A stretch of 63,622 bases of DNA, filler included, from Hyphochytrium catenoides (lineage: Eukaryota > Protista > Hyphochytriomycota): the NCBI GenBank assembly GCA_900088475.1. It is 6 parts of 6 records of this genome, joined end to end, with 100 filler letters (N's around TTAATTAATTAA, not from the genome) between each part and the next. Parts side by side here need not be neighbours in the genome. Positions count along the whole stretch, not along the records: positions 32,070 to 62,505 come from FLMG01001738.1; positions 62,606 to 63,622 come from FLMG01000877.1; 4 more parts are not named here. The stretch is one strand, 5' to 3'. Under the pieces are notes generated by a model, which was not told the DNA's origin, ran no database searches, and saw only the letters and a program-made list of their open reading frames with translations. The translations under genes were made by a program, and so were the position numbers. Shown here piece after piece: positions 475-63,622 of the stretch (its first letter is position 1; every line of letters starts with the position of its first letter).

Positions 475-799
475 GGTGCCGTGCAGTCACTGCACAGCTT
501 CCGAAAGACGATGTGAGCGGAAGGAGTACCGACGAGGAGTGATGCCAAAGAGTCTTGACTCACTCTTCAGCAGGACCGCGCTCTTCAGCAGGACTGCTGG
601 CCGTTGGAGGCATTGCCCTGCGGCTCTGCTGAGTCATGGGAGAATAGGGAGAAAGCGAGCAGTGTTATACAGAGGGGAAGCGGAGATAGAGGTTCATCTG
701 TTGAGCGCCTGCGCCGCGAGATATTTTCTGATGGCGGCTGGGGTGATAGGAGTAGATAATGACTGAGGATGAAGTCTCCTGGCTGAAGGGACCCGTTCA

Positions 800-6968: not shown

Positions 6969-6999
<31 letters not shown>

Positions 7000-9976: not shown

Positions 9977-10179
9977 CTTATTGAAAAACGACAGCCTTCT
10001 AAAAAACTGCCTGCACCAGAGTTAGTCGTCCTTAGTTGTTCCTGGTAGGCAAATATATAAATGAGCTGTCTTTGGAGATGTAAGTTCTCAGGTCGCGGAC
10101 GAGACGCTAGGTATATCTGCTATCTCCTCGTTACTGCCTTCATCTCTTCATCCTCAAAAACTTTTTACTTTGACAGGCG

Positions 10180-10860: not shown

Positions 10861-10935
10861 GCCTGAAATAATGAAGGGGAGAACGGAAGGAATTTTATAA
10901 AAGAACACCAATCTAGGATTCGAAACCTTCACATT

Positions 10936-11940: not shown

Positions 11941-12719
11941 GTTGCGTCTAAATTAATGCCCGATGGTCTGTCTTCCTCCTCTTTCTCAAGTCTGGGCGTG
12001 TCTGGCTTCCCTTACCGGAGAAGCACAAGGAGACACGGCAGACACGATTACTTCCTCTTCTTATTATAGCCGTGTGTCCGGGTCTGGGGCGTGGCCCAGG
12101 AAGTAATAATGATACTGCCAGTTCTGCTTCACTCATTCCATCCGAATCATTCATCATCCTCATCAGATTCCCAGGCAGTGTCGTGACGAGACATTGTCTT
12201 TCAGTCGTTTATTTATTTGTCAATAGGAAGCGTCACCACTCACCACCATCGCATCGACTCGGAGAACTACAAGTACTACTTCTAATACTTCTACTCCTAG
12301 CTAATAATAAGCTAGGAGTCGCCTGCTCCGCTTACATTCTCGCATTTTACTACCTCGAGTTTTATGTTTATTGGTAGAAAGTAGTTCTTAGAGGAGGAAA
12401 CAAAGAACCAAGATGGCTGGGAAGTCAGACCCGAGTAGTTCTACATGTTCCGTCGGGACCAAGTGATAGCTGGGAATAGGTTAGTCCCACGGGTTCTGAC
12501 CTGTTGACCTAACATACTTCACGATCTACAGGCAGCGGGTGTCAGTAGCTTGGGCAAACGGGTCTATGAGTGGGTGAGCCCATCCGTCTTGGCAACCTCA
12601 CAACCAGGAAGGTGGCAGGAAGTAAGGCTTCCTAGCGTCACCCATCATTGTCCCAAAAGTTCGACGCCCATCTCACCTCCTAGCCCTCATTGTCCTCTTT
12701 CTTCTCTAAAAAGATAGCC

Positions 12720-13090
12720 TTCACTTTCAGCCCTCATTTTCGGCGTCCGTCGACCTTCACTTCCCTCTGTCCTTCAGTTCTCACTTTCCTCTGTCCTTCA
12801 GCCTTCACTTTCCTCTGTTCTTCAACCTTCACTCTCCTTCAGCGTTCAGGTTTTCCTCTCTAAGCTTCAGCCTTCAGGTTTTCCTCTCTAGCCTCCAGGC
12901 TTCAGCTTTTCCTTTCTAACCTTCAGTCTTCACTTTCCCCTGTTCTTTTCTCAGCCTTCAGGTTTTCCTCTGTCCTTTAGCCTTCACCTCCTTCTCTACT
13001 TCAGCCACCTTCACTTTTCTTCAGCGTTCATTAACTTTTTTCTCTGTCCTTCAGCCTTCACTGTCCTTTGTCCTTCCTGTTGCAGTTTCC
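12720..13090. repeat. Degenerate ~24-bp minisatellite (consensus ~CTTCAGCCTTCACTTTCCTCTGTC)
   Basis: Roughly 14-15 imperfect tandem units visible directly. Confidence 0.8.
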
Positions 13091-15616: not shown

Positions 15617-15716
15617 NNNNNNNNNNNNNNNNNNNNNNNNNNNNNNNNNNNNNNNNNNNNTTAATTAATTAANNNNNNNNNNNNNNNNNNNNNNNNNNNN
15701 NNNNNNNNNNNNNNNN
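15617..15716. other. Artificial scaffold spacer N44-TTAATTAATTAA-N44
   Basis: 100-nt linker with stops in all six frames; identical spacers at 26640-26739, 28915-29014, 31970-32069 and 62506-62605. Confidence 0.97.
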
Positions 15717-16052
15717 AGGGGGATCTCTCTTTCTGTACAAGGCAACTCAAGAAACAGAACAAAAGAGCGAGGGAGACGAGACAGAGCGCGGGTGGATGAA
15801 GGGAGGGGCTGGAGGGATACTGTGGATGTGTGAGATGTGAGATGTAAAGTCAGACAGAGAGCAGGACACAAGATAGCCGGGCCAGTGGCCAGGATGGGTG
15901 GGGAGGCAGCGGAGAGTGTGAGGGAGAGTAGAGGGGTGTAGGTAAGATAAGGCTAATAATTACTTTGATAAACGAGAATTACAGGTGGGTCTGACTGAGA
16001 AGCACTGTGCGTTTGAGTGGGTGGGGCAGCCTAGAAACAAAACTGGAATCCT

Positions 16053-16100
<48 letters not shown>

Positions 16101-16991
16101 CTCTCTGTCTCTCTCTCTACTTCTCATAACCCTTACTCTTTCTCTGTCTCTCTCATTCTTTCTCTGTATCTCTCACTCTTTCTCTGTGTCTCTGTCTCAC
16201 ATGCTTCCCTTCTCATCTGACTCTGTCCACTGGCTCCCTTGGTGTAACGCTCTCGAGGGTTAGCGAGGAAAGACTGTGGACCAGCGCCAGTTCCTTTGCC
16301 CCTTGACACCAACTGAACAGTGAGTCTTGCTGCTGTTGGAGCGGCGGCTAGGGCGGCTGCTGCTGGTCATCGAGCGGTCGTCTCTTTCTCTTTCAAGAGA
16401 AACATCAAGAGAAAAGGATAAGTTGATGCTCTTCAACTGGGAACGTCTCTTTTGCCCTCTGTTGACTGACTCCTGCCACGCCGAGAGAATTGGACTACTC
16501 TTGCTGCGGGGACTGCGACTCCTTGTCTCTTCTCTCGCTGCTACTTTCGCCGGGAGGAGCAGACACAGGACCAGACAGCGTAGCAAACGCGGCAGGACAG
16601 ATAGAGCAGGCAGGCAAGTGCTGCGCTTATAGAAAGATGAAAGTAGGACGTGCTGAGAGTTGGAGAGAAGGCCTTAAACCAGAAGGAAAGAGTTGTATTG
16701 GACTTGCGAGCTAGTAGACGATTGATGAACCACAAGCATCGCCTCTCCCTAAGCCTCTCTGAAGGCAGCAGTGAGATAGCACAAACACCTCTCTCTTCTC
16801 TTTTCTCTCACCAAGCTCTCCGGTCTGCAACCTTCTTCTCAACTCAGCCTCACTCCTTCGTTTCTCCAAAGACGAAGCTTGCAGGACCGTTGCTCTGGAG
16901 CTTGGTACCTTCTCCCTCTTTACTTTACGCCGCCACTTCTCTAGAGTCAACACTAAATAACAGACGGTTATGACGCCTTCACTGCTTTCTC

Positions 16992-19900
16992 CTAACGCTC
17001 GTCCTTGTCGTCCTCGTCATCCTCTTCATCGTCCCACTTGGCCGGGGGCTTGTCCTTGGCTTTCTGCGCGACAATCTGCTCCATGTGCTGAACGAGCTCG
17101 GGTAGGTTGTCGTGCAGCAGGATCGTCTTTCTTCTCGTCTCCTTCAGATCTTTCGCTGTCCTCTGCATCGATACCCCGAAGCCGACAATAATGTCGTTGT
17201 GATGCGAAGAGGCGAAGATGTCATTGCAATGAACGTCCCCAATGCCCTGCCTGATGATCTGGTGCAAAAGGAGAGATGTAGAGCGACAACGTTGAGAAGC
17301 AGATATGGAGGAAGACAGACACGGAGAGAGAGTGTGCGAAGGACAAGAAAGAGAGAGAGAAAGAGATGAACGAGAGAGAGAAAGAGATGAGAGAGAGAGA
17401 GAAAGAGAGAGCGAGAGAGGGAGAGAGAGAAAGAGCGGGTTTGATGTCAGCTTCTTTAAGTACCGGGTACAAGGGAAGAGCGGCTACAACGAGGTACTCG
17501 CAGCAAAGTTGGCGCCATTAAGCGAGAGAGGGCACGACAGGGCTAGCGCTCACGTTAGCGGCCAACGGAGTAAGAAGAAGATGATGGTCAAAGAGAGACA
17601 GAGCTAGTCCGCACTACCTTCACGTTCGGTAGCTCCCGGACGCCGTCAAAGAGAGTTTGCAGCGCCCCCACCGTGTCCGCCTTTATGATAACAGGTATCA
17701 TTGCGTTGTAACGCCGACGCTCTTCGGCAGGTGACAAGTGCTGATTCTCTTTCCTCGTCTCTCTTCTACCCTTTTCTCCCAATCCCGTTGCTGTCTTTGG
17801 TCTACTCACTGACGCCGTTGGACGAGGGAGCTCTGCAGGCAGCTCAATAGCTCTGGAGCATAGGTCTTCATATTCTATTTGAAGGAGCCTAAGATGAAGA
17901 GGATAAACAATGAGGCGGCTCTGGTATGGCAGGAGTCGCTCTCTCTCTCTTCTATACCTCGACATGGAGGGGCCCTCCTCCATGCCTTTTCGAGTTGAAG
18001 CCTTCTTTCGACCTCTTTCTATATGCTCTCTCTCTTTCTCTCACTCTCTCCTTGTGCCTGTCTGTCTCTCTGTCTCTCTGTCTCTTCTCCGGGGAACACT
18101 ACTATCAAAGACTCTCAACCATAATCTGACAACTATTCGTCGGCGCCAATTTGTCTCTCTCCTTTCTTTCAGCCCCGTACTCACCTTTGCTCCGTGACCT
18201 TCTCTGAGGCCTTAGCATCGCAAGCTATCAGCTTCTGTCCCACTGGCAGATCCCTCGTCTTGGACGCAAAGGATATCGTGACCCTTGCCACCTTTCCAGG
18301 AGGAACGGCATCCACGACTTGTCCACTCTCATCTTGCAAAGTCTTGATGGACCCTCGGATCATGCCAGCCACAATATGATCCTTCTTTTTCAGTGTTCCC
18401 TGCTCTATCAGAACCTCTAGGGTAAGTCCTGAACCCCTTGCCATGTAGACCTCAAGTACTGAACCCACAGCGGGCCCAGAAATGTTTACGGAAAGGTCTA
18501 GACTGGCTGCGGCATTCGCTATCTCCTTCTGCAGCTGTTGAATATGCAACTTCTTCTTGGCTGAGATAGGGACAACGACTGCTTTGTCCAGGTATTCGAA
18601 CTCTCTTACACTCTCTATGGCGGTGTTGATACTCTCCGAGGAGGCTGCGTCTATCTTATTCAGTCCAACAACAGTCGGAATCTTCACGTCCTCAAGCCAG
18701 CCAATGCACTCGCCCGTCTGCTGTCTGCAGCCTTCGTCAGCTGCCACGACCAGAACGCAGAGATCAGCTACTTCACTGCATACAGATCGCATAGCGAAGA
18801 ACTGTTCGTGACCAGGAGTGTCTAACACAATACAGGGGCCCAGAGACGGGATCTGGACGTTGCTGATATTGATTCTCTGTGTGATGCCGTGGGTTTCAGA
18901 CGGAGCGATACGGTCTCTTTCTGGACCTCTAAACACGTCGACCAGCGTGGTCTTACCGTGATCAACGTGGCCCATGACGAGGATGACTGGGGCCTTGATG
19001 CCATCCTTCTCAAGATGTTTGTACCTGAGAAGAGTGTGATATCATGCAAAGCCAAACAAAGAAGAAAATGATGAGCTACTGGCACACACAGAGGCGCAAC
19101 GCAGCGCAAATAGTCAATATCTGAGGTCAAACTGGGAGAGGAGATCGCCGAGATGGAACTGCAAGAAGATGCCAATCATTTGCTAGAAAAGAGTGATACT
19201 CCAGAAGACCATGTAACGCATCGCAGAGCTACGTTTGAAGCTAGTGCATAGTCAGGCAGACTCGTTAGAAAGCAAACAGCGGAGAGAAATATAAGACTGT
19301 TACTGGGCTAACCTTAGAACTAGTTCGTCGGCTGGGTGCAACATAGCAGCCTGCTGGCCTTTCAGAGCCTTGGCCACTCTGCTGCTGTGCTTGAAAGGAA
19401 GGATAATCTCTTTGATTGAGGCGAACACTACGGTCTTTCCGCTCTCATAGTCGTCAAACAGAAACTTTCTCCGCTCTCGCCTACAGTGCTCAAGGACCAC
19501 CGCCTCCACGGGCACTTTCAGGAGCTTCGCAAGGTCTCGAGCTCGGATCAGAGGAGGGATGTAGACGTCGGGTTTGAATATTCCTGGCCGTCGCTGCCTG
19601 GAGCATTCAGAAGGGTAAGAAAGGCCTTGCTGGCGAATAGAGCTCAAGATGGGAATGGAAAGAGAAGGGAGAGTGGCCGCTTGGCAAGGAATAGGGACAA
19701 ACAGCCTGGCTTCAAGGGAGAGATAAGGTCGAGAAGAGAGAAAGAGGCACACATGCTTAAAGAGCCACAGAGAGAAAGAGAGAGAGGAGGGAAGGAGACT
19801 ATAAGGTGGCAGACGGAGACTATAAGGTGGCAGACAGAGACAGGAGAGAGAGAAATGCAACGAAGGGTGGGAAGGCATATCGAGAGGAAGAGTAGAAAGT

Positions 19901-25503: not shown

Positions 25504-28500
25504 AAATTTTTTGCTTTCCTACTGTAGTTACGCCCCTTGAATACTTTTGACCCTCTAGGAAATAACAGCGGCCGCAATACTGAGGTATCGCATCATGTGT
25601 ATGTCAGTCTTCTGTTGGTAACTTTTGCTCCACTTGCAAATTCGGCAAGCTTCTAAAGGGTAGGGGGCTTAGGTCTGCATTAGGTCGGGAACATCAACAA
25701 TAAATTGCGCTAGTTGCAAATCAGCATGCCTCAGTTTGTGATCTGTATGACCTTAAGTGGTGTTAGGTCATGAACTTTCTGAATGTATACATCATATTAG
25801 ATATCAACACGACAGTTTTAGGAATAATGATGGATTGTAGAGGGACCTAAGCCCATTTTGAGGTCTTTAATTTGCCAGCTTGAAAGCAAGTAAGGGTGAC
25901 AGTCTTCTCATCCAGTTTATTCCGCTCACTATTAAAGCACCAGGTCTGCAGTACTGTATCACTTCTTCGTGCAGCGCGAGCACTACGGACAAACCCTCCC
26001 TGCTGCTGCTCCTGCTGCTGCTGCTTTGATGAACGGTGCTTCCCGCCACCACCACCTCGGTCGGCTCGCTCCTTTCTCCTCGCTCCGTCCTGCCTTGCTC
26101 ATTTCCTCTTCTCTTCTTCTCAATCTTCTTACTCCTCTCGCCGCCGCACTTTCTTCTACTAGTCTTCTTCTAACTAGAAGTCGTTTGTTGATTGTAAGAT
26201 GATACTAGCAGCTTCAATCCACCAGGAGTTCTTCTTATAATAACTGTAGACAAGAAGCAGCACTACTACGACGGACGAGTAGCAATGAAATTGAAGATAA
26301 TAGAGACCGACCACCGACAATACGCCCTTAGGTACATCTTCTTCCTCCGACCCGTCCTGGGTCTGTTTTCTGGACCTCCTTACTACATTCGCTATTGCTC
26401 CTGGCGGCTGGTCCTCCTCTTCCCCTTCTTCTTGTTGCCCGAAGCAGTAGTAGTAGCAGTAGCTAAATATAAAATGAGAACAACAACAAACGCGGCCGCC
26501 CAAACCTTGGCACCAAATTGAAGTGCTCCATCAACTGCAATGACCACATGCAGCTACTACTCATGGCGAATCGACGAGAAGGCAGCAGGAGCTTCAGCGG
26601 CGGCTGCTGTCTCGTTTAGATTTGCTTGGTGGAAAGAAGNNNNNNNNNNNNNNNNNNNNNNNNNNNNNNNNNNNNNNNNNNNNTTAATTAATTAANNNNN
26701 NNNNNNNNNNNNNNNNNNNNNNNNNNNNNNNNNNNNNNNGAAGCCAAATGAGACCGAGGAGGTGATGAGGGGTGGTAAGGTCACACTTAAGCAGTGTCGT
26801 GTCGCCTGACTCTAGGAGGTTTGAGTCTATATTTAAGGGAGACTCATCGAAGCAAGCGCTAGCTGGTCTGGCCCACGGAAACGGATGTAAGAAAGAGCAA
26901 TAATGAAAGATCCTCCTTTCAGCAGATGCGCCGTAGGAGACCCCGGAGAAGATCGCCAAGGAGAGGACACATACCTCTTCTCTCATCATGATTTGATAAT
27001 ATCACTAGTTCCTACTGCTGAGGATGCGCAGTCAGCTCAGTGGCCGCTGCCAGGAAGATCTCAAGCAACAACGCACGTCATTGCCTTCCACACATCGAGC
27101 GTTCCTCTTTTCATTGAAAGTCATTGCGAATTGAGCAGCTGCGAGGCAGCAGAGCGGGAACTCTGTCCGTTTGGATCTCTATCTTTGCTGCCCACTTTAT
27201 TGTGATCATCAGATGGAAGTGTTCTGGTTCTGATGCGTCGAGCGGGAAGCTAAATAATGAGCTGTCTTTTCATTCTTTATAGTTTTTTTTATAGGATTTT
27301 AGTGTCCTTTGGGTAAACTCGATTTCCTCCTTATCATCTGTACAGATTCTTGAAGAACTCGTAGGCTTCTTTTATCCAAAGTGCCAACAAACTAATCTCT
27401 TTATAAACAAAGCTTTTATATTTTTTTCAAACCCATAAATAAATACAGGCATGGCCATGCCGCATGGCACACCTTCCACAAACTGTTGTACAAAATAAGA
27501 ACACAGAGAAAAGGGCTGAAAAGAAGGGAGGAGGAGGAAGCGATCAGGGCCTCCTTGGTTCCCCCCATGTTACGACCTCCTCCCTCCCGTCTATAGTTCC
27601 TGGAAGTCTCCACACCTTAACTTCTTACTTCTTTACTGAGAAGGGCGCTGCTTTGATTACTTCTAATAATAACCAATATATAGAAATGTAGAGTCCTTTG
27701 TATGTATGATAAGGCCTTATCAGGGCCTTATTACATTAATTTAGCCGGTGATGATGGATTTTTGGAAAGAGGGTGGTGTGGTATTTGTGCAAACTCTGTA
27801 TAACGGGGGAGCCTTCACTCACGACACAACGGAGACTCTCCCCGTAGCAGATATGAAGTACAATAGGGAGGTAGGCCAGCGCAAGATGGATTTGTCCCCC
27901 GTGCCTTGAGGTTTCACACAAATTGTGTTAGTGCATTGATGATGGATCTGGCGCGCCCGGCCACGAGCGCACAAGAAGCCAGCAGCAGAAAGGGCATCAC
28001 AAGGATGATCTTAGTCACTAACTGTAGGTCGGCCCTCTCCAATGTGGTCCTACCTTGCACTACTACTGCAGATGGCCATCTTGACTATTGCTAGACGAAG
28101 ACGAGGAGTTCTTACCCTTTTCCCTTGCTTGCCTTTCTTCGCTGTCCAGTTGAGGAGAACAGGAGAGATCAAGGGGTTGATCTTCCTAGCTAGACGAGCC
28201 GCACAATCGTCTCCTTTCAGTCAAACGGTTCACACAAGGATGACTGGCTCTATCATCTTCTTCTTCTTCTCCAAAAAAAGAGGGGAAAAGTGAGCTGGAG
28301 AGCAGAAAGCCAGCTTCAACCTGTCTCTTGCTGGAGCCGCTCACCCCGCTGATGATTCAAGCTGCACCCGTTCTGCTCGTCGGTAGAGGAAGACGATAGA
28401 GCAAAAACCGCGGTTATTGGAGCTTGTGTAATAGACCTACTGCTGCTCGTAAACTTCATGAAAAGCTGTCCGGCTTGTTACCCTCGTCCTGGATTCTTCT

Positions 28501-43628: not shown

Positions 43629-46103
43629 TTATGCCATCTCAGGGCCATTAGTGCACTCCACCAATTGCTGAAGCTCCAATTTGTCAGCAGTACTCAAAAA
43701 CGGAGAAAGCTTATGTATCTCGCGGGCCAGAGCTCGCTCCTTACCGTCATCTGCCACTCCTCCCCGCTTCTTTTTCTTCTTCTTCTTTGGGTTCTTCGCC
43801 CGCCAAACTGCCCAACAGATGAAGAGTGCTGTGGCTATTCCTCCGACGGTGAGGAGGATCTTGTTCACTGTGGCTAGGTCGTAAAAGTTCTTCAGAGCAA
43901 GTTTCAAGAGAAGGAGGCCAGAGACAAGCCAGATCACAAAGAAAATTGTAGCCGCTGCCCAGCTTCTCTCCAGGTTATCAGCGTCCTTCGCTTTCTCCCT
44001 GGCATCCACCATCACCTCTGGAGGTATGAGGTGCAGTGCAAGCCAAAGAAGACAAGGCAAAATTACTAAGTCATCTAGGTAGCCAAGCACAGGGATGAAG
44101 TCGGGTATAAGGTCGATGGGACTGAGGGCATAGGCGATGGCGACAACTGCAAGAATCTTGGGGCAGAGCCTGGTCCTGGGGTCCTGGGTAGCAAAGTATA
44201 TGGCGGCCACCTCTCTCTTCAGCCCCTTGGCCTGCCTTTTGAGGTAAGCTTTTAACTCCAGGAGAGAGTCTAGGACGAGTTGGCCAGCGCTTTTGGGCCC
44301 TTCTTCTTCTTCCCGTTCCACCTTGCTTTGTCCTCTCTTCACCCCTTGATCAATGCCAATCTCTGTGTATTCTGCCGCAAGCTCTCCCACCAGCGCTGCT
44401 CTTCCAGCATTCATTCCATAATTATGCTTAGCGTCTAGCACCCCTAGAACTAAGGTGGAAAAGGAGCACAGTACCGCAAGACCCAGAAGAGATAACATCC
44501 CTGTCTCATAACTTCCCGTCAGATCCCGTAGATAGCCAATCGTCACATGTCCCAGTACCCCACCCACAGCGCTAAAGACAGTCATTATGCCGTAAGCCAG
44601 CCCATAAAGCGAGCTTGAGACGCTGTAAGGAACCAGGGTCATCACAATCGTTGAGACAAACGTCGAGCTAAGTGAGAGAAGTAACATACTGCTCACAGGA
44701 GAGAGAGAAGAGAAGGTGAGCAAGGTGTAGGCCCCAATGGTGAGCATACCAGCTAGAAAGAGCACATGCAGCCGATGTCCGTACTTATCAATCGCTAGAC
44801 CAACCAGGGGAGCAAATAGAACAAGGACATGGCTCAAACTTGCGATGATAGCTGCTTTGTCAAGCTTGTACCCGTACTTCTCCACAAAAAAGTTTGACCC
44901 AACTGTGTAGAAAAGCCGGAAGACGTTTTCATAACCTAAATGTACCATGACAAGAAGCCAGAAGGCAGCTCCAAGAGAGAGAAAGTTGCTTTTCCCTTCT
45001 ACCTCCCCACATTCCTCATCCTCATCCGCTTCCTCGTGGACGGGGCTTCTCCTATCCCTGTCGACTAGTCGTGGTTCTGTCTCTACTGACAACGATGAAC
45101 CAGAATCACGAAGCCACTGCTCTGCAGCTTTGTCACCCAAGGCAGCAGCGGCAGTGGCCCTCGCAGTCTCTCTCCTCTCTCTTCTCCGCATGGCCAGAAA
45201 GAGCCATCCCGAGACGAGTGATAACCCACAGATGACAGCTGCGTACCATCCTGCGGCCTCATAGCCTCCATAGTGCAGGGCCACGGGAGCCATCGTAGTC
45301 TTGCTGATAATCTTACTGAAGTTTGAGAATGCCATACAGACGCCTACCGCAAATGTGAGCTCCCTACCCGTAAACATGAGCCCCACCATCGCGTGCTGCG
45401 ACGTCACCACTCCTGCCTGTCCAGTCCCAAAGAGAGTCGCTGCTACTAGAGAGAAAGGGAAAGACTTCATTGAGAACGACATGGCCATAAGGACCTGACC
45501 AGCCAATGCTACCAGCAAGAAGAGCGCAACAAATCTCTCCCCTTTATTATCCAACAGGTGGCCAGCCCAGAAAGGGACAATCATGTTTGGCACCGTCATT
45601 GCACTCATGATCATGCCGTACCGAGTATTATCTATAGCAAACTCATCATCCGCCAAGAGCAAGCTTGCAATAACGGACATTCCATTCTTCACAAAGTGGT
45701 CGCCCAGAGCGAAAAGTGCGATGAGCACCAGAAGAAAAAATCTGAAGGAAGTTGCTCGAGGATGCCAGAACTTCCACCAAGGAGCTGGCTCAAGGCGTAG
45801 AAGAAGGAGCCCTGCAACCGTGTCTGCTCCTCGGATTAACTCCTTTTCTTCTGCCTCTGTTGAAGTAGGTAAAAGTGATAGAGCCTCTAGAGACTCATTG
45901 CCTATAGTGGTGACACCCTGAAGCTTTGTCATCGTAGAGTAGAGTTTGTGCTCGTTGATGTCAAAAAGGACGGAGCTGCCGTGTGGTTTGTCGGCGCTCG
46001 TCGCTTTTGAAGGACCCTGCACTCTGACTTTTGAGCTTCTTGCCAAAACAAGAAGACCGCGTAGGCTGCCATCTCTCCCCCGTTCGTCTTCGTCTGGGAA
46101 CAA
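43629..46103 (-). CDS. Major facilitator superfamily transporter (MFSD1-like) fused to a C-terminal DUF1232/YkvA domain; true start probably further upstream
   Basis: 824-aa uninterrupted ORF: ~12 hydrophobic segments with MFS motif-A variants (GHLLDNKGER; GLAIDKYGHR), GYLRDLTGSY, then KREVAAIYFATQDPRT...AYALSPIDLIPDFIPVLGYLDDLVILP (DUF1232 signature) plus two more TM helices and a poly-Lys tail. Confidence 0.88.
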   Translation of the reverse strand: MFPDEDERGRDGSLRGLLVLARSSKVRVQGPSKATSADKPHGSSVLFDINEHKLYSTMTKLQGVTTIGNESLEALSLLPTSTEAEEKELIRGADTVAGLLLLRLEPAPWWKFWHPRATSFRFFLLVLIALFALGDHFVKNGMSVIASLLLADDEFAIDNTRYGMIMSAMTVPNMIVPFWAGHLLDNKGERFVALFLLVALAGQVLMAMSFSMKSFPFSLVAATLFGTGQAGVVTSQHAMVGLMFTGRELTFAVGVCMAFSNFSKIISKTTMAPVALHYGGYEAAGWYAAVICGLSLVSGWLFLAMRRRERRETARATAAAALGDKAAEQWLRDSGSSLSVETEPRLVDRDRRSPVHEEADEDEECGEVEGKSNFLSLGAAFWLLVMVHLGYENVFRLFYTVGSNFFVEKYGYKLDKAAIIASLSHVLVLFAPLVGLAIDKYGHRLHVLFLAGMLTIGAYTLLTFSSLSPVSSMLLLSLSSTFVSTIVMTLVPYSVSSSLYGLAYGIMTVFSAVGGVLGHVTIGYLRDLTGSYETGMLSLLGLAVLCSFSTLVLGVLDAKHNYGMNAGRAALVGELAAEYTEIGIDQGVKRGQSKVEREEEEGPKSAGQLVLDSLLELKAYLKRQAKGLKREVAAIYFATQDPRTRLCPKILAVVAIAYALSPIDLIPDFIPVLGYLDDLVILPCLLWLALHLIPPEVMVDAREKAKDADNLERSWAAATIFFVIWLVSGLLLLKLALKNFYDLATVNKILLTVGGIATALFICWAVWRAKNPKKKKKKKRGGVADDGKERALAREIHKLSPFLSTADKLELQQLVECTNGPEMA

Positions 46104-49100
46104 GACCCCTTGCTCTTCTTCGTATACGATGGTTGCTTTCTGGTGCCCTCTGCAGCGGCCTTTGTAACTTATGGTGCTTCCCTGTTCCCCCTTCTCCTTC
46201 TATGAAACTCTTACACGGAGATCTTGTTTCGAAGAGCCATCTCATAATAAAGGGCTGAGGTAATCCCCCTCGTCTTACGTCCCGCTCCTCAAGGCGACTC
46301 CTTGTCACATGTTTCTCCCCACCATGTGCTTTAGAAGTGCTGCAACCTAGTAGTTTAGTCATCGTACAAGGTCATGTCCATCGGCTACCTTCTTGCCTTG
46401 ATAGTCGCCTTCAGACACTCGTCCTGCACCACCAGGACTACTGGGAGAAGGGGAGCCGGTCTCCTCCTCCTCGTCTGCTGCTCATCAACATCACATCCTC
46501 CTCATCAGCAGCAGGTGTAGCACCAACGCCAGCAGGAGAAATGAAGCAGCAGCAGCAGGCAAAGCATGAGCAGGAGCAGCAGCAATTGAAGAGGGAGAAG
46601 ATCCTTTGCCAGCAGTTCCAGAGCTTGCTCCTTATCTTCATGAGCGTCATCATCATCATCACAACCTGCACCAGAACCATCATCCGACACTCAGTTCCTA
46701 TGTTATTATGTTAGCCGCCCCGCTAGCGGCGAATATTGAGGTCACTGGACTGACGGTTGACTGAGATAGTAGAGTCCATCGGAGAAACAGGCGGCGTAGG
46801 ACTTGGTGATAGTGGTCACTCTGCCTCCTTTTGCTATCTCTTTCACTGCCAGCTTATAACAATAGCAAAGCATTGGCTACGCTCTGTCTCGCTATGTGTT
46901 GATCCCAGCTGTCCCCCAGGTGCTACCATTTGTGGTAACGGTTGATCGGCTGGAGGGCTGACCGATGTAGTTCTATAAAGGGAAAGTGCCGTCAGTGCAT
47001 CGTCAAAGCGACGAGAAGTGCGATCGACATCAGCACCACTACCAGCAAGCAGCAGCTGTGGCACAGGCTCTAGCCTAATTAAGCAGTTCACTCAGCAGCA
47101 CCAGGACCTTGAATGATAGTTGAGCGGCAGTCTGGACGTCAGAGCATTTCTCCGTTTGATCATTCCATCCTTCCTCTCCTCTGATGTCTTCGTGGGTCGT
47201 AGACTAGCTTCTCCTCTGGTGTCAAACAGACGAGGTATTAAAGTACGTCAGTAAGGGGGAGAAAGGCAGAGCATCTCTTCGTATGGCACTACCGCTCGCT
47301 GCTAAACGACGGCCGCGCTGTAGTATCAGATGACGACGGGGGAGAGGATAGTATATATAATCATCATGTGAAAGTACAAATTATGTAGGAGTCGGACTTT
47401 CTTGTTTCGATGCTGCATTCTTGGAGGCAATTTGGGTGAGGAAAAGCACGTTCCTATGGTGAGAACCCTTACTTTACCGCTAGACCGGAGCAGTACCCAT
47501 GGGTTATTACTGTTCTTGATGCTCCCAGCGCGGCGACCCTCTTTGTCGACGAGCCCAATAGGAGCTTTTCTTTTGTGTCACAACCCTGTCTAGATGGAGT
47601 GAGAAGCAAGATAATAAATTGCAAAATCTTAGCCGCGCATTCGATGGAGCTTATTGCTTTATAAAATCGAAGCAGATAAGTGACGTCTAGTAGCTTCTTT
47701 CTCGTACGACTGGCACACACTACTGTGCTCTTCTTCTCTCTGCTAATCCCTGTCATAGATACGTCCAATGATAAGCAACAATAGCTCTATATCTACACAT
47801 CAATAATAAACTTGTCGCCAGCAGTGCCATACCACGCCTACTGATCCTCAAATCGGGGGTCAATGGTGTTAGGTGGAGCTTCATGTTATATATTTTTCGT
47901 AGGACAGGTGCTTGCTGAGGGTTCGTAGGTCAGACAGTAGGATACATGCAGATAGACATGCTCCTCGGAAGGTTAGGATGGGTCGTTCGCCAGATCTCCT
48001 AGTACTGTTATGTTGAGAGCCTTCAAGGCTCAATAGGGTTGCTCTACCTCTCAATAACTCGTCTTCCTGAGAGGCGGAGAATGGATATTGACCGTGAGAA
48101 GAGAGAACAGCTGACAGTGAGGAGTGACCAAGCCCTGTTACATGCTGCCATCATAATAACTCGAAAGCAAGGGGCAAGAACCCGCTCATTTCCTTATACA
48201 TAGAGACTCTCCTGCGGCATACAATCACCAAGCTTCAGGATACTACGAAGAAGATCAACCACTTTAGCTCGGACCTACTAATGCTAGAAGTGGAAGAATC
48301 ATTTATAGACGATCCATATACCTCATTAAGCGAGTTTTGAATAGTAGAGAGCTTGTGGGGCAGCCCCTGACCGCGGGCAGTGGATCTCTTAGCTGATGGA
48401 CATCAGTAAGCCGCAGACTTTGCGCATTCTGAACTAGATAACATCTCCGGCGGAGAGGACGAGTGGCTCTTTTGTTAGCCTAGGAGGAAGGCAATAGGTA
48501 TTCGCCTGATGAAAGGGCTGCGGTGTAAGCGTTAGGTCCTAGATGACCTCTACTCCCTCCCTCCTGATTTGGCAAGAACCTACTTGGCAGCTATCCCCAA
48601 TTGGCAGTCTTCTTTCGTCTCGGGTATCGAACGATTTAATTCAGCATACGTAGAGTGTCTTATCCATCTTAAATGCCGAACCGTGGGCTCTCCTCCTCAG
48701 TCAGGCCCAGCGATTGCATCCTTCGCTGCGCACAGCAGCGGTAATCGTAAAGAGGATTCCTCATCAGTCGGCCCTAATTTGGTCTTTATGCCGATCACTA
48801 GTATGGAAACGTGCCCCTTGCTAGGCGTCCCGCCCCACCCCGCCTTATGTCCATGTCTTATCCCACACCTGTCCTCAAAGAAGTCATTGGGTATCAGGCG
48901 CCTGCTTTCCTTTCGACACAACGAACATAAAGTCCACTGCGCAAGAAGGTGAACCGCTTAATGAGCCATGAGTGCTCCTCCTCCTCCTCCTCCTCCTCAG
49001 TCATCATGCTGCTCGCAACTTGGCCTCAACCCTAGCTCCTCCTTTTCACAGCAGTAGGTGCCCTGTCCTTCCTCAACGGAGCTGCGTGCGTTGCTTTCCC

Positions 49101-54846: not shown

Positions 54847-55686
54847 AGAAGCCAACCGACGAGGCAAGGAGCGAAGGTCCATGCCAGTGTTGCTTGGTGA
54901 TGATGGCAAAGATCTCAAGGAAGTGCAACTGCTATCATCATGTGTTTTGCAGGCTATTGTTGGTAACATTTTCCCCACTTCCAAAACATGTCTACAAACT
55001 CAATAAGTTCTGGGCAAACAGTGATCAAGCAAGTAATCAAAATTGCTACTGTAGCCCACTCTTTCATCTGATCAAGTGAACAAAATTTCCACTGGGTGGG
55101 GAGTTATGGAAACAATGAATGTTACCCTTATTGCCTGCAATGATATTTGACAAATAATGGTGTCAATGGTGGCTGATGTGAGGAATCATGTCATCAATTT
55201 CTGAATGCAATTTTTGTTTACTGATTAGGATGCAGTTGGTGTGAGCTATTCAGAATGCAATTTGTGACCAATATTCAGGATGCAAATTATTTTCTGGATT
55301 TGGTGTGAGCTATTCAGAATGCAATTGTTCGTGTTATTTAGAATGTGAGCAGTTTCTGTTGTCAAAACGGTTCTGGTTACTGCTGCTCGCGAAACAGTTG
55401 TGGGTTTCCGAGTTGTGACCCATTATCCTGAAAGCATGAATGAAGGGTTCAATCAGTTATTGGCGGGTTTATTGGTAGTAATAATAGAAAGAGTGGTGCG
55501 TCACCCAAGCGCTTCATGGCCAACGCGGATGTTGGCTATGAAGTGGTAAAGATTAGAGAAAGAAGAAAATATATAGTCAATTCATATGAAGTTTAGTTTG
55601 TCAATTTCTTAAAACCGCTGATACGGTGAAGGGTATCACTCTTTCGTTGATAGCCGCCCCGCTTGCTGTTCTCTTTGGGGCACAAC

Positions 55687-57056
55687 TACAGTACAGGGTT
55701 GCACATCGGTATCGGTTAACCGATAATATCGGCAAATATCGGGAATATCGGTTCACTACCGAACGGCCAGCCGATAATCCGATATCAATGCCCGATACCG
55801 ATAGAACTATTCCGATACGATATCAACCGATATTAGTACTTCTCTCTTTTTCTATAAGCTCTATTCCATCCCCTTTCACCTAAAATGGAAGGGGAAACGA
55901 AACCACTACTACTAGAGTAATAAAGATCACCGTTCACCAACCATTCAATAAGGTAGAAGATGTATAGATCAATCCATGTACTATTACTACTTCTGAAAAT
56001 GCTTTAATTATCTACCAATGCCAAGAAGCAAAGAGCAGCAGATAGCGGAGACCGAGGAAACATATCTGGCCGCGGAGTAACAGAAGGGGCTAATTATAAG
56101 AAGGCGGACAAGGCTGAGTCCTTGGCACTAGCAAAGAGCATCCTGAAGACCCAAATCCAGAGTGAGATCAAGCTTTACCACAGGATGCCCAGTTTATCAC
56201 CCTCAGGGGATCCTCTGGCATGGTGGGGGGCAAACTCTACTCGTCTTCCCTATCTGGCGGGCCTAGCAAGAAAAGTCCTAGCTGTTCCTGCAACATCTGC
56301 TCCATCGGAGAGAGTATTCTCCTGCGGCAGCGTAGCAACACGGTAGATAAAACGAGAGCTAGACTAGCAGGGCACAAAGTAGCTGTCTTGAAGTACTTGG
56401 GTGCCACCTGGAGATTTGTAGAAGAAGAAGGATTGTTGAAAGACGCATCAACTGTACCACGGGGAGAAGCAGAGAAAATTTATGAGAGCGAGCAGAAGCC
56501 TAAAAAGTGTAGCGAGGATCAGCTGGTCGAAGTTTTAGATTAATAGTAAGAAACCATTTCTACGTCTACAATGAATATGAGGCCTTAGGGGACAGTGTCA
56601 GAGCGACTCTTGAGTAAAAAAATATAAGTCTTTCTTATTCTCCTCCGTCCCATGATGGTGGGCTTGATAATAATCATGATTTTCTTTCTCCAAAAAGAAC
56701 CAATCCAGAAGCTTCCTAACAACGAAAGAGTTCAGCTTGACGATGATGCTACCAGCGGTGAAGAACATAATGATAATAATAATAGAGCCATATCTGCCTC
56801 ACGGTGTTGCGTCTTTCTGCCATCTAGTAGTATCTTGTGGAGATCTGCAACCATCAACGAAGAATGAAGCAGCACACAACGAAGTGAGTGGGAGGGAATA
56901 GTTATTCCACGTCAAATTTGGCGATATCGGTTAGCCGACACAGCCGATATATCGGTATATCGGCACCCTACCGATATTACCGATATCTCCCGATATATCG
57001 GTGCCACTTTTACCGATCTTTCCGCTATCGGTAAATCCAACCGATATACAACCCTA
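55687..57056. mobile_element. Internally deleted hAT DNA transposon (~1.37 kb)
   Basis: Imperfect TIRs CAGGGTTGCACATCGG (55694) / CCGATATACAACCCTA (57056); 8-bp TSD GGCACAAC at 55679-55686 and 57057-57064; dense subterminal CCGATA/TATCGG repeats at both ends. Confidence 0.9.
56122..56543 (+). pseudogene. hAT transposase C-terminal dimerisation-domain remnant (frameshifted)
   Basis: EIKLY...DPLAWW...RLPYLAGLARKVLAVPATSAPSERVFSCG followed, in another frame, by VDKTRARL; this is the Dimer_Tnp_hAT signature. Confidence 0.9.
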
Positions 57057-57564
57057 GGCACAACACCGCGAGATTCTCTACGGATGTGACGTCTCATAAG
57101 AGTCATAAGAGTGTTTGGTTCCCAGAGACTGCTAACCGGTATTTTGTGCTCTAGGTTCAATTTCTTACCGTAATTCATTTCTGAGAATTCGCTGTGGGCG
57201 TCCAGTAGTTGATGGATCTTCTTTTTGAATTCCTCTTTTGGTGTCAATGTCTCGATTTCTTTGATGCTGTAGGCAGTGCCGTGCTCAGCGCATCTTGCTT
57301 GAATACCTGTGCACCAGTTATGCCACATCTTGGTGCGTTGGGAGTCGTCAGAGTACTCGTCAGTCCGGACCAAGCCCTGCCACTTCTCGTCACAATGTTG
57401 ATGTGAACAGATCACTGTCTCCTGTTCTTTGCGAGCGAAATGTTGTAACCTCTTGTGAAGGTGATGGGATTTGTTGAACGTCTGTTGGCAGTAGCCCTGT
57501 TTGTGGATGTGTAAATGGTTGTAGTATCGGTCAAACTTCTCAGGACTGCCGGTGCGAGCACAGA

Positions 57565-60500
57565 TTATGCACGTTGGTGTCTCGAGAGACAATGCTGATA
57601 AGACCAGTATACGATGTCGTCTATGGTATTGCGAACCATGTCTTTCTGAAGTCCACTCCGTGAGCAATGCGCACAGAAAACTAGTCGTTCTGTCGTACAG
57701 CGCAGCTCGTTGTCGCAGTTATGTTTGCAACCGCGGAAGAAACCGTGTGGTTTGCTATGTGTCGGGGTTATCCAATACCTCTTCCGATCACACATTGTCA
57801 GTGTTTTGAACTCGCGCCGAGTCTCCATTGTTACGCCACCACTTGTCTGGTGGTAGCACTTCTTAAAGAGTGTATTGTCAACTGATAACTGTGCGAGCTC
57901 ACGGTATGTTTGCAGGAACTGTTCGTGTGTTGTCTTCAGGTGTGCTTTGTTGACACCTTTGGCCTTCCGACAGTCTGTGCCGCTACAAAGACCATAGATC
58001 GAAGCTTTGGACCCAATGCCACGAATTCGGAATTCTCAGATTCTAGTTTAAACTTGCCAGGAGTGATATCATTCTTGTCCTTGGCAAAGAATTGGTCCCT
58101 TAGAGGATCACTGAACTTGCTCAGGAAGTCTTCGTAGGAGTCTGCCTTGACGTTAATAAAAGCTGAATCGGTATCCGTGTAGAGCAGTTCGAGGTCTTCC
58201 CTTGAGTATGTCTTCCATAGACAATTGTAAATAAAATCATAGAGTAATAGTTTAGCCATCCATAAGATACCGGAGCCCAAGTACCTGGGCGTTTTCAAGG
58301 TCACTGAAGCTCTGCAGCTGACCATGAGTGATGTTGCTGATAACTGTTTAACGCCAACGATAAGCTTTCCATGAGCTCGTTTTTAGAACTCTGTTGCATC
58401 ACTCACGATGAAGTCCGTCGTGTATTTTGACTCGTCATGTAAGCTCTTACCATAGACCGAGTTCTGGATGAGCTTGTAGTCCTCTTTAAGCGTCTGGCCC
58501 TTTTGGATCAAGTCTTCGTTGTGTTCACGTTCTCCTTCGACGATCATGTCTTGGGCCTCACGTCGTTTCTGAGTGTAATAGTCGATGAATTCTTTGTAGA
58601 CGATCTCAAATCGCATGGGGAGAATCTTCTTGACTCTCGAAAGAGTTACCATGTCATTCGCAAGCAGGAACAAGAGCGCATATGCAGGTAAAACATAGTC
58701 TGGTGCCGGTTTTAGACTTAGCATCAATCTGTCTTCTCCGGCATTGGGTTTCTTATTGATTGCTCTTTGGACACGATTGCCGAAAGGGCCAAGATTATCT
58801 GGTGGTCGCTCCTTCCTGGGTAAGACAGGAAATGTCAGCCGTTCTTCCTGTTCCTCAGTGTAGAACAGATCGCACTGGACCATACTTGACATCAAAGTGC
58901 CAGCGTCATTGAGCTCATTGTTGACTTTCCCAGTCGTTTCTTCATACATGAGCTTGCGTAGGAGGTCCTTCGCTCGGGTCGTCTTGCTAATCGGATGATC
59001 TTTTGCTTGTAAGCGCTGCACTGCTTGGGATCCTCTACGAACTCACATACTGCTTGCCCTTTGTCATCGGTTGGAAATACCAAGAGAGGTCTTGCCATTG
59101 CCCAAGGATGCATGGAATTTGCATATAAAGAATAGATCTTGCGGAACTTCGTTGCCTTCGAGTAATGGTTTAGAACAGTAGTTAGCCCTCCGTAGATTGA
59201 TTCGTTTATGAACATTGATGCTTTTCATTTGGGATGGTGTGAACGGTAGTTCTCCTATATGAGCTCTTGAACACGTTGTCTCCAAGTTGTGAAATAGTTA
59301 GATAGTTGAGGACTTCGAGACCCGTGTCTTTGAAGACGGTAGCTCGATAATTGGCGACCGCATCCATAAGTAATTCGACGTCACGGAGACAGTAGTTTTC
59401 GGTGTACGCCTTAAGGTTTGGCTCTGGCAATGAGTTCCACACTTTGAGAGCCTCCGCTTCTCGGTCGCCCCAAATGCCAGTTGGAAATGTGGACTCGTTG
59501 AACTGTACGGGATCCTTAAAGTATTCGTAGTTGAATGGTAGCTTTCCTTTGGAGACAGCATTTCTACGGCCAAACTCTTCCAGGGACCCATCACCGCTCG
59601 TTGAACACGAAAGATATGAATCTCTTGTGCTTCCGACTATAGATTCTCCACCTCAATTCCAGAATTCCTGACGCTTGGTTTACTACTCTTTCAATATTCT
59701 TCATATGGTTCAAGAGAAACGTTAAATCATAACGTGAGGAGTTATAACCCAAAATCGGGACCGTAATCTGCCTGTGAAGCAGCTCCTTTTGGAGCTTCCC
59801 ATAGATGCAATCGTGCGAACAAATGTCTTCATCGTCACACTTACAGAGGTGCTGGTATTGCGCAAGCTTTGTACTTCTTGCTTGTAGTATGTTTGTTAAC
59901 AGAATGTCCGCAACATCGTACCGCAGCCAATTGAGAAGTTCGCACCAACATCATTTTTGTTGGCACCAGAGGGTTAACTTTCGATGTGTTGGTATAGACA
60001 AACTTCTGCTTGTAAGCTCGGTCCAACGCGAGAATAGTATGGGCGTGATGAACCTGGTTGCGATCTATGATCGATTCAATGTCAAAGCAAATGTAGGTCT
60101 CATGTTGAAGTTGCTTGCCGTTGTTCAGCTCTTCGTAGACTTTGTGGACCGGAGAATACTTGAGGAGCCCCTTTGTGTACCTTGGGTTTATTTGAAGACT
60201 CCGACGGTTGTTGCAGATGTTCAAATGCTTCTGGTAGTCCTTTGGGCATTGCTGATACCTCCCAGAGCTCTTACGTTTCCACTTTTTGCCGCAGTAGAAA
60301 CATTTGGTTTGGTCTCCATAATTATGCAATTTATCAATGAATGCGAAGTGACATTCATTGTCATCAACCTGGAAACATCTAGGAAAATGTCCTCTGCCTG
60401 TTCGTGGGAGAAGATACTGCAAATGACTTCCCAGCTCTTGTTCTTTTCTTGATAGCAAATAAAAAGGTTGCAATTCGTTGCCTGGGCAAGACTCTGTAAT

Positions 60501-61746
60501 GCCTCATACTCAAAGGGAACTACTTGCTTCTGACATTGTTCTGTGTGAGAGACTTGACCTCGCTCTTTGACTCGCTTGTCTGCGAAGTCGTGCAGTTTCT
60601 TAGGATCGGATATGATGTCAGTGAATTCTTCCAAACCTAGAACGTCCAGAACAATTGGATTGGCAAGTCGTTTGTCATCTGAGTGTTTTTGCAGCCATAC
60701 AGTCGGCAACAAAAATCCTGGGCGACCAGCCTCTGCAATGGCGACTTGTGCTCTCCAAACGATATGTCCTCGTAGAGCTTCTTGAACTTCCCAATTCCAA
60801 TTGATCTAAAGACACAAAGGGCGTCTGAATTATAGACTTGGATGACACCAGGACGCTTACCCCCTGACTTGTAGCCTTTGTGGCCTATCTGTGGGCATTT
60901 TAGGACTTTGACAGTGAAGTCCTTCAGGTCATGGAGCACACGATTACTCTCATTTAATTCCGTATCCATCCACGCCTCTAACGCATTTTCAAGGGCAGTT
61001 GACACCTCTGCGACCGCCTTGGGAGTGAACACTTGGCGAAAAACTCCATTCGGGAAATAAAAAGATCGTGCACCCAGCTCTCCAGATAACTGGTTGAGTG
61101 TGCTGCAATTGAGCGAGAATTGGAAACGAAACGGCGAAGCAAGCGACCTCGTGAGCACACGTTCGACGATGGGCCTAATTGCTAGGTCAAGATGGTGTTT
61201 CCAGTCCTTGTAATGTACACCTCTCTTAAAAGAGAATGTCATACGAGACAAAACTCCGGCCACAGGCTTGCGGAGTGCATCCGTCAGAGATTGGTCAAGC
61301 TGGTCCAAGAAAGCTTCAGACCATAGATCAATATATGTTGTTGCGTGCAAATGACTCAGTGCCAAGAGGAAGTCTTTGTCGGAGTCTCCCGTACGTTCCA
61401 TTAGACCCTGACCGGTAGCATAGTCAACTACGTCTGCCGGTGACTTTGAGCTCTGGGTTGGCGCATGGCATTGGAGGATTTCGGTTGCTACCTCTTGCCT
61501 GTATTGTTCGGTCGCCTGCTCTTCAGAGATCTTCTTTCGGCGTACAATCTTTTGAACGTCGTCTTTTTGGTTTTGTCTCAAAAGCTCTAAATTTCGCTCA
61601 AAGCCATCAGATCTAACATCATCCGTCGTCGGAGAGAACTCCAGTGTAATCTCTCTCGTTTGTTTCATAAAACCAATAATAGTGTTTACCGCGTAAGCAA
61701 GATCTTCAATGGAGTCCGTAGCCATCTGGAGCTTCTTCTTGTTCAT
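57565..61746 (-). pseudogene. Protein-primed family B DNA polymerase (Polinton-type) with N-terminal OTU-like and zinc-finger region; multiple frameshifts and stops
   Basis: In order: GVIQVYNSDALCVFRSI ... ECHFAFI ... CFYC...KHLNIC; ExoI YICFDIES (~60085); ExoII GYNSSRYDL (~59735); KGKLPFNYEY; ExoIII YCLRDVELL (~59390); FINESIYGG; motif A decayed to SLYANSMHPWAM; motif B KLIQNSVYGK (~58460); motif C YTDTDS (~58175); PGKFKLE...FVALGPKL; C-terminal KTLTMCDRKRY...PHG. Confidence 0.9.
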
Positions 61747-61803
61747 GATGTCTAGCTGGTACTTTGCCGGTCTCGATACTTATGCAGTGTTGATAGTACA
61801 CCT

Positions 61804-62241
61804 TCAGCACAAGTTGTCAACGAACTTGACCGTGAATCCCGTAAGCGTTAACTTCGTCTTGGACATTTTTCGTAAACGGTAGTCAATCACCACGGGGATC
61901 CTCTTGTAGTCTGTCGGTTTCATTGCTTTGTCAACTGTAAAACTGTACTGGTCCTTCTGTGCGAGAAAGAACGCTTCGTTGGGGAGTCTTTTGGTAGTGT
62001 ACATTGGCCGATAACCTTGTTCGAGGGCGACTTTGGTAATGACCTTGTTCGCAATCTTCCGTATTTGTTCTTTCTCATCATCTGTTACTTCTCCTTGGCT
62101 GTTTGAAACTTCATTGATAGCTGCAGCGTCTATTCTAGACAGCTCTATGGAGGCTGACCGTACCTTCTTCAGAGCTAGGACTAGCGTAGAGTCGAGTGCC
62201 AGTGTCTCGCACAACTCTACCAGACGCTTGAACGCCGCCAT
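61804..62241 (-). CDS. Hypothetical 145-aa protein of the virus-like element
   Basis: Intact ATG-to-stop intronless ORF 57 nt upstream of and co-oriented with pPolB; natural-looking composition. Confidence 0.65.
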   Translation of the reverse strand: MAAFKRLVELCETLALDSTLVLALKKVRSASIELSRIDAAAINEVSNSQGEVTDDEKEQIRKIANKVITKVALEQGYRPMYTTKRLPNEAFFLAQKDQYSFTVDKAMKPTDYKRIPVVIDYRLRKMSKTKLTLTGFTVKFVDNLC

Positions 62242-63622
62242 TTGGTTGTTAGGTTTGATGTCACTTTGCTTTTGTCAGCTGAAGGGGGTTGGGTATAGTA
62301 TTACCAGACCTAAAGTCTAAAAGGAAAATTTATTTATACCACTCTGATGCCAGGAATCTGGATGAGCTGATGTCTGTAGAACTTAATTGAGTACCTTGTT
62401 TTTGTTTACTGTAACGGGCATATTATTTGACAGGGTGGGCAATTATTATATTATAAAAAGGGAAGAGGAGTTCGCCGCTTCATCTCCTTTAGTGGTTCTC
62501 CCTCCNNNNNNNNNNNNNNNNNNNNNNNNNNNNNNNNNNNNNNNNNNNNTTAATTAATTAANNNNNNNNNNNNNNNNNNNNNNNNNNNNNNNNNNNNNNN
62601 NNNNNTCTGAGGACCATTCTGTCAGAAACCAGAACTACTAAAGAGGTCTATCCTCCTACTATGTTGTCTTACTGTACAAAATCAGAATAAGTATGTTAAA
62701 ATGCCTCTCCTATTCCAAATCAAGCGTAGATGATGTTTGATGGTCTGGAAAAAAGGGCAAATCCACGTTACAACAAATGATGATGATTTTGTGTTCCTGT
62801 ACAACAAAATACTGTAGCAACTAAATAATCTAGGAAGACGGTACCTACAGCTTGATCTATCTTGCAGCCATAGTCGGCACCTTTATACGGGCAGAAGAAG
62901 CAATAAGAACAACAATAGGATGAGACAATAACATACCGTCTCTGAATTCTTGCTGGACCCCCATTGGATAGGATAATAGCGGCCCGTCCACTTCTTCGGT
63001 TCCTGGTGGTTCCTCCTTTGCACCGCACCTGGTAATATTCAATCTTAACACAGTGATTGTCCTCGGAAGATTTAGCAACTAAAGATGCCGGCTTCGACAA
63101 CGGACCATAAGGTGTGACTTTACAAACTCTTAGAGGCGACAGATTGCGTAGCAGATTGTGTAGGAGGTTATCAACGAGGAGAACTCTGCCTTAATTATAA
63201 GACAACTTTTAGCATAATTGACCTACTAATAATGAAGGGTGGAGACTTCGTTGTGGGCTTGCTAATCCCCTTTCTCTTCACTGCTGCAGAAGCGATGACC
63301 AAGTAGACCCTGAGCATTCCTGCCTTTTGTGTGGCAAAGTTTGCTTTTTCGTAATGGGTGAAAAGACCAAGCCTTCGTACCTGCTGCCTTCTCTTCTTCC
63401 TTCTTCTTAGTAGCTTTGAATACATTTTAATAGCCCATAAGTTGGTGATCTGCTGTCTTCTCCGCCTCCTCTGCGGGTGCCCATTATCGTCCAGGACACA
63501 AGAGATTTGTCAAGGCAGCAAGGGTTCAATTGGGTTGCCTGTTATCGCAATCGTCAGCAGGATAAAGGTCCTTGACGGGGCAACTGCTGGCTTATTTATC
63601 GTGAGCACTGCATCTTCCTCTG

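Follow-up and report, generated by a model that had tools for sequence, protein, structure and literature searches.

What kind of element left the broken DNA polymerase gene that lies on contig FLMG01001738.1 of Hyphochytrium catenoides (assembly GCA_900088475.1)? The stretch of DNA analysed here (63,622 nucleotides, hereafter the window, along which all positions are counted) joins six records of this genome, and an initial annotation had read positions 57565-62300 as the relic of an endogenous Polinton/Maverick-like virus with a divergent, protein-primed DNA polymerase of family B (pPolB). The evidence presented below inclines us, on balance, towards a dead copy of a self-synthesising transposon of Polinton type, and probably one that carried no capsid gene.

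The pPolB gene occupies about 61746 to 55593 of the minus strand and, once a hAT insertion is discounted, comprises some 1,590 codons, a length comparable with that of its relatives. Six-frame translation recovers the motifs of such a protein in the expected order on that strand: the vOTU cysteine, ExoI (DIES), ExoII (GYNSSRYD) and ExoIII (YCLRDV), followed by motifs A (LYANSMHP), B (KLIQNSVYG) and C (YTDTDS). A profile of eight intact relatives, built with the window sequence excluded, matches ten collinear pieces at 61632-57113 (nine of them with E values of 2e-8 to 4e-46, the tenth with E 1.5) and gives a single stray match elsewhere in the window (E 4.8). Motifs and profile together confirm, far beyond chance, the ordered polymerase motifs over many frame fragments that had first been reported. 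The nearest intact relative, P0002 (1,646 aa), was matched by exhaustive search with 40% identity in the palm (E 8e-45), the alignment spanning 61650 to 57125, where the C-terminal piece lies at 57409-57125 with E 2e-11, although a word-seeded search with one polymerase piece gave no match. Pfam PF03175, against which the protein was to be checked, is matched by two pieces, but weakly and under the Pfam cut-off (E 4e-4 and 5e-3).

At least nine frame changes, one in-frame stop (58383-58385) and the hAT insertion disrupt the reading frame: the ten pieces imply eight of these changes as well as the stop, and the ninth change lies in the C-terminal domain. Both the cysteine and the histidine of the vOTU domain are retained. 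The gene does not stop at 57565, where it had been delimited, as its HNH-like domain continues at 57409-57113 and its end lies at 55593, beyond the hAT insertion. This last element has inverted ends, is flanked by an 8-bp target duplication (GGCACAAC at 55679-55686 and 57057-57064) and matches Dimer_Tnp_hAT at 56008-56343 (E 3.5e-12); one contig of run X2 joins 55690 to 57115, like an empty hAT site. Copies of this hAT element elsewhere skip 56006-56423, and a short telomere-like GGGTTA repeat lies at the joint. The pattern [EA]NSxxG, found in the final codons of the gene, occurs three times in the 127,240 six-frame residues of the window. The lack of GA microsatellites is borne out, with no tandem repeat called in 55300-62500 and a longest GA/TC run of 8 nt.

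Sibling copies are known from contig alignments only, the contigs coming from three runs (X1, X2 and X3) of a single study, which are not independent for that reason; no RNA run is listed among those matching the stretch. Contigs with zero differences cover 58641-59372, 60243-60436 and 60563-62490, including several of the breaks, and support these as genuine. Other contigs are about 90% and 80% identical to the window and show single-base indel differences near several breaks. At the motif-A codon (59125) a zero-difference X3 contig agrees with the window and other contigs, from all three runs, carry an aspartate codon; the degraded motif A noted earlier is thus real but limited to this copy, its siblings having kept the aspartate. 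A 7.04-kb sibling contig is collinear with the window from 57310 to 62251 and extends 1.8 kb further upstream. Third codon positions account for 12/20, 7/9 and 4/9 of the sibling differences in three sets, counted as the best-supported subset among those listed, and this predominance fits copies that diverged while active. The element is multicopy: three or more diverged copies occur in this host. In X1 and X2 the window copy reaches about half the contig depth of the flanking host DNA, which, although depth does not equal copy number, hints at a possible insertion in a single haplotype.

Folds were predicted for an intact relative, L007, modelled in two parts, with a pLDDT (score of the predicted local distance difference test) of 87 for the core and 74 for the N-terminal part. 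The core search used an 897-residue model, bearing on the polymerase fold rather than on the HNH-like part, and matched phi29 polymerase with Z 19.6 (root-mean-square deviation 3.6, 479 residues aligned) as against Z 11.4 for Pol alpha; the best matches among viral models were bidnavirus-like, MELD/adintovirus and adenovirus polymerases. The N-terminal part contains an OTU domain (Z 9.7, root-mean-square deviation 3.1, 111 aligned), preceded by a Y-family little-finger fold at Z 7.0-7.5, a range (below 8) that is by itself suggestive only. In the part of PMC11071308 available, this little-finger fold is given as the PRD1-like terminal protein, the vOTU domain is proposed to release it, and mitochondrial plasmid polymerases are without vOTU. 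Sequence searches against solved structures gave no match, and the Atlas returned only unnamed clusters for the N-terminal open reading frame (ORF). Exo I-III and motifs A-C in the window, together with the phi29-type fold of L007, are those of a protein-primed family B polymerase. Given the phi29-like core, the viral best matches and the terminal-protein and vOTU N-terminus of this modelled relative, the identification of the window gene as a Polinton-type pPolB, already made by the initial annotation, is supported. Two other candidates were rejected: a mitochondrial linear plasmid polymerase, as vOTU is present in L007 and aligned in the window, and a transpoviron/Tlr1-like replicase, as the window keeps ExoI-III and carries no helicase.

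The C-terminal domain is predicted to be an HNH-like nuclease. A profile of this domain from 13 relatives matches the window with E 8e-11 (the next match among 2561 frame pieces has E 8), and a DH...N...N pattern is conserved across the 13 aligned domains. The domain has weak matches to PHROG 1035, 'endonuclease VII' (E 7e-4 and 0.012), to which a stand-alone homologue in L001 gives a match of E 6e-11; an Atlas score of 0.76 for the HNH reading serves as a lead only. Of the 176 polymerase hits fetched, 24 have the tail (the profile was made from 13 of these), and no long group-2 protein does; within the clade described below it is carried by 8/10 proteins longer than 1,000 aa, P0007 and P0155 being without it. 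The Cys/His-rich linker of the window copy exceeds that of P0002 by about 90 codons. On a 6.3-kb contig, P0030 joins polymerase, HNH-like domain and a PIF1 helicase (E 1e-29) in one frame.

Two polymerase-core trees were computed (84 and 51 sequences), with supports given as Shimodaira-Hasegawa-like approximate likelihood ratio test (SH-aLRT)/approximate Bayes (aBayes) values from a fast search and as FastTree values. The motif-C pattern missed 16 of 100 sequences, which were left out of the first tree, and P0168, left out of the second; proteins under 600 aa were excluded, four excepted. The intact relatives (1,460-1,730 aa) form a supported clade (n=14; 99.2/1 and 0.976), separate from the group-2 Polinton polymerases, which are the nearest outside group; within it the window copy joins P0002 and P0011 (91.5/1 and 0.999). 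An endonuclease-VII-rich group-2 set is split from the HNH-tail clade plus outgroup with 99/1 and 0.981, which contradicts a placement inside the group-2 pPolB clade. The phylogenetic comparison envisaged at the outset is thereby answered in part: the gene falls outside the group-2 set in a clade of its own (99/1), but the trees contain a single named group-2 member (P0040, from Biomphalaria), and named references for group 1, adenoviruses and plasmids are absent. Beside Hyphochytrium, hosts of the clade are the amoeba Planoprotostelium fungivorum, in which members are broken genes (PRP79834, PRP76353 and PRP73800), a probable ciliate and the sources of many metagenomes; another member comes from a eukaryotic transcriptome (P0013, expressed). 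The metagenome scan covered 18/64 parts, so that the members found are a lower bound. Scans of viral contigs with clade proteins and patterns found four distant polymerases and no clade member, at a low sensitivity for which they are not counted as evidence. Some observations concern other lineages. L008, an AT-rich contig of 4.9 kb whose one pPolB has 1,374 codons and which bears palindromes close to both ends (252-426 and 4823-4870), is possibly a small linear element of another lineage, and on L010 (4683-5767) and L011, contigs of 6.4-6.5 kb, a group-2-type pPolB stands tail-to-tail with an rve integrase.

One relative is seen whole. Contig L025 (CAZARR010000020.1) has perfect 222-nt inverted repeats 13.2 kb apart, between which it carries polymerase P0005, open over 1,734 codons, directly upstream of it an open rve integrase (E 4e-15), and about six small or Lys/Glu-rich ORFs. 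Its open polymerase and integrase do not suggest decay. Pfam, PHROGs, NCBIfam, tblastn, composition and a Walker A scan, which found no such motif, revealed no capsid, ATPase or protease in it, and comparison with the proteins of 11 more distant pPolB loci gave polymerase and integrase matches only. Its only two ORFs of capsid size and no known identity are Lys/Glu-rich (shares of 0.27 and 0.23), as against 0.07-0.10 for six ORFs of known or presumed capsids. C4A4 repeats, which are telomeres in some ciliates, occur at 1-56 of this contig (1-15660); the record was binned as bacterial, and we regard it as probably a eukaryotic contig of ciliate origin. The bin, labelled bacterial and incomplete, contains no other copies and no A32 ATPase. 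Profile searches of L007 likewise detected no capsid, penton, A32 ATPase or maturation protease. Neither was a capsid or other virion gene detected in the window, in keeping with the earlier remark that capsid, ATPase and integrase were not visible there. As no virion gene is seen in the window or in L025, the term virus, under which the locus had been entered, is not shown to apply.

The pieces of the gene and the features at its edges are collected in the following table.

Table. Parts of the polymerase gene and features bordering it, in window coordinates
Feature	Position	Strand	Remarks
High-copy repeat bounding the copy	62461..62505	.	directly before the linker
145-codon ORF upstream	61804..62241	-	in the frame of the N-terminal piece, two stops between
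N-terminal piece	60637..61746	-	helical region, terminal-protein domain (suggested by the model of a relative), start of vOTU with Cys; 28% to P0002 174-501, E 2e-29
vOTU remainder, zinc finger, ExoI	59841..60805	-	His kept; two overlapping frames
ExoII and ExoIII pieces	59206..59950	-	two frames; PF03175 E 4e-4
Palm and fingers	57936..59224	-	motifs A (Asp lost) and B, stop 58383-58385, motif C YTDTDS
Thumb piece	57712..57981	-	34% to P0002 1407-1494, E 4e-9
Cys/His-rich linker and first part of putative HNH-like domain	57065..57711	-	P0002 1507-1601, E 2e-11
hAT element, non-autonomous	55687..57056	+	1,370 bp; inside HNH-like domain
Final 30 codons and stop	55593..55685	-	terminal ENS-x-x-GG motif of the clade
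AT-rich non-coding stretch	54975..55592	.	GC 0.40; four repeats spaced 25-39 bp at 55206-55326

The 145-codon ORF is part of the element, in which it may be a gene of its own or the original start of the polymerase; the sibling contig aligns over its region (at 61832-61913 and 62152-62251), and it has no match to P0002, other relatives or Pfam. Five X2 contigs diverge before 62461, where summed depth passes from 188 to 17,454, and the repeat that begins there is a candidate only for a terminal repeat of the element. On the other side, the AT-rich stretch possibly holds an element end. Near this left edge, 54936-54985 is 80% identical to 25591-25640 over 50 bp, probably a host repeat. At 15617, 26640, 28915, 31970 and 62506 lies one and the same 100-base linker, made of 12 bases between two runs of 44 N; these are assembly joins, so the pieces on either side of each need not be adjacent. 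The idea that the rest of the element lies beyond the spacer is weakened accordingly, the last 45 bases being high-copy repeat and the run of N an assembly linker.

How might such an element have moved? From a domain order and a decay that are either observed or predicted by models, we infer that a polyprotein of some 1,600 residues would prime copying at linear DNA ends via its terminal-protein domain, that the vOTU protease would release this domain (after the accessible portion of PMC11071308), that the element would be copied by a proofreading core of phi29 type, as the folds predicted for a relative suggest, and that an rve integrase, its gene being seen in L025 and not in the window, would insert the copy into a chromosome. 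The HNH-like tail would most likely act as a tethered nuclease of homing type, spreading or defending the polymerase allele among co-resident elements. After divergence, the window copy took its frameshifts, stop, motif-A aspartate loss and hAT insertion. Extended to the whole clade, the proposal is tentative and somewhat doubtful: protists may harbour undescribed, widespread capsid-less Polintons, true self-synthesising transposons consisting of an integrase, terminal repeats and one proofreading polymerase-HNH fusion, whose nuclease would contribute to replication or spread.

Several points weigh against a capsid-less transposon. In the window, neither an integrase gene (the copy is truncated) nor terminal repeats nor a target duplication of the element were found, and the HNH call draws on a motif and weak profile matches. 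The capsid-less picture comes from one complete relative, which is not the nearest to the window copy (P0002). Polintons end in AG...CT and duplicate 6 bp of target; the ends of L025 differ, its flank shows a target duplication of at most 4 bp (ATAT), and an internal C4A4 run at 13470-13493 makes a chimeric assembly likelier. Upstream of the L007 polymerase lie 1.2 kb devoid of ORFs and downstream an ankyrin gene; beside the polymerase in L007/L006 no integrase was seen, and P0169 sits on a 30-kb contig. According to the part of PMC11296320 available, moreover, profile searches can miss the capsid genes of elements of this kind. A fragment of a capsid-encoding Polinton or Polinton-like virus, its virion genes deleted or unassembled and L025 a reduced derivative, is an unlikely yet serious alternative. 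It agrees with the group-2 polymerases being the nearest outside group, with a sibling contig that goes 1.8 kb past its match to the window, with relatives' contigs that are mostly partial and with the free movement of replicases between capsid types reported in the accessible part of 10.64898/2026.10.13.758929; it is harder to reconcile with the absence of virion genes adjoining the polymerase in the window, L007/L006 and L025, and with a polymerase and an integrase in the latter that are open and not decayed-looking.

We consider it improbable that an episome of some 7 kb, either a linear plasmid or transpoviron-like, bearing this polymerase without an integrase of its own, became integrated by accident. 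Cytoplasmic linear plasmids do have the same order of terminal protein, vOTU, Exo and Palm (PMC11071308, in the part available), at least seven clade contigs measure 6.3-8.4 kb (P0002 at 8.4, P0003, P0007, P0030, P0168, L007 and the host sibling), the helicase that follows the HNH-like domain in P0030 recalls transpoviron/Tlr1 fusions, and an expressed member, P0013, is known. L025, however, has an rve integrase, the ends of L007 and L006 share no terminal repeats, other clade contigs reach 11-61 kb, and the full exonuclease is kept, in contrast to transpoviron polymerases. It is scarcely credible that the gene encodes a cellular or mitochondrial-plasmid polymerase, that the contig is a contaminant or that assembly errors alone broke an intact gene. 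All three runs come from one study and no listed contig spans the whole stretch, but these readings are already contradicted by the phi29-type fold and vOTU domain of a relative, the zero-difference contigs over several breaks, and the presence, within the gene, of a hAT element flanked by its target duplication, on a contig that also bears host genes. A Polinton-type transposon, likely capsid-less, is the reading that we favour.

The host portion of the window contains ordinary eukaryotic genes. A DnaJ piece has its top match in the alveolate Vitrella (54%), closely followed by other protists and fungi, a result that speaks for a protist host but hardly beyond that. An intron-free frame of 856 codons at 43629-46199 on the minus strand encodes an MFS transporter (E 4e-30) and then DUF1232 (E 3e-14), and is either a fusion or two adjacent genes. 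At 4238-5140 on the plus strand, a 300-codon ORF with a Pro-rich tail has no Pfam match at E 0.01; we take it to resemble a secreted copper monooxygenase (similar to lytic polysaccharide monooxygenases, LPMO).

A full pPolB with a C-terminal HNH domain, or this clade, was undescribed in the literature searched, whose scope left out most subscription papers, and within that literature the earlier claim of an undescribed lineage is supported; published supplementary pPolB sets may contain unlabelled members, which would reduce the novelty. The new aspect is the nuclease tail, and possibly also the lack of a capsid, within the Polinton kind. Polintons received their name as self-synthesising transposons; the discovery of capsid genes later led to their reinterpretation as integrated viruses. 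If our reading is true, an intact clade that combines a full polymerase, integrase and terminal repeats and lacks a capsid would represent the original model in its transposon form, missed by surveys starting from capsid genes. The window copy is dead and its value is that of a lineage marker; the intact L025 and L007 make virion-free movement and the role of the thumb-tethered nuclease testable.

Among known systems, group-2 Polintons/Mavericks (pPolB2; Polintoviricetes; adintovirus/MELD) come nearest in the trees and share with the clade the terminal protein-vOTU-Exo-Palm polyprotein and the style of its motifs, and with L025 the rve integrase and terminal inverted repeats. The HNH-tail clade is nonetheless separate from them: its nuclease follows the thumb at the C-terminus, while endonuclease VII is found in many group-2 hits, and no capsid, ATPase or protease is seen in its elements. 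Cytoplasmic linear plasmids of the pGKL type are described as capsid-less Polinton derivatives with the same polymerase domain order; they carry RNA polymerase and capping genes, which are not seen in L025, and L025 in turn has an integrase. The fungal pMVRE group-1 elements are described as capsid-less too, with polymerases related to that of mavirus, unlike those of this clade. The published HNH or VSR cases in group-2 polymerases are insertions, as far as the available part of PMC10748475 goes. Transpovirons are likewise without a morphogenetic module, and Tlr1-like proteins terminate in an HNH or a GIY-YIG domain (PMC11071308, part available); P0030, with its helicase fused last, resembles their fusions of pPolB and superfamily 1 (SF1) helicase, but transpoviron/Tlr1-like proteins have lost the exonuclease, whereas ExoI-III are retained in the HNH-tail clade, where a helicase is usually absent. 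OmPLV of Oxyrrhis marina offers another fragmented pPolB fusion of about 1,500 aa endogenised in a protist, and differs in its N-terminal helicase, a polymerase near group 1 and adenoviruses, and the presence of a capsid and a tyrosine recombinase (both from the accessible part of PMC12721341). Capsid-less pPolB elements as such have already been published (PMC13215967 and 10.64898/2026.10.13.758929, each available in part).

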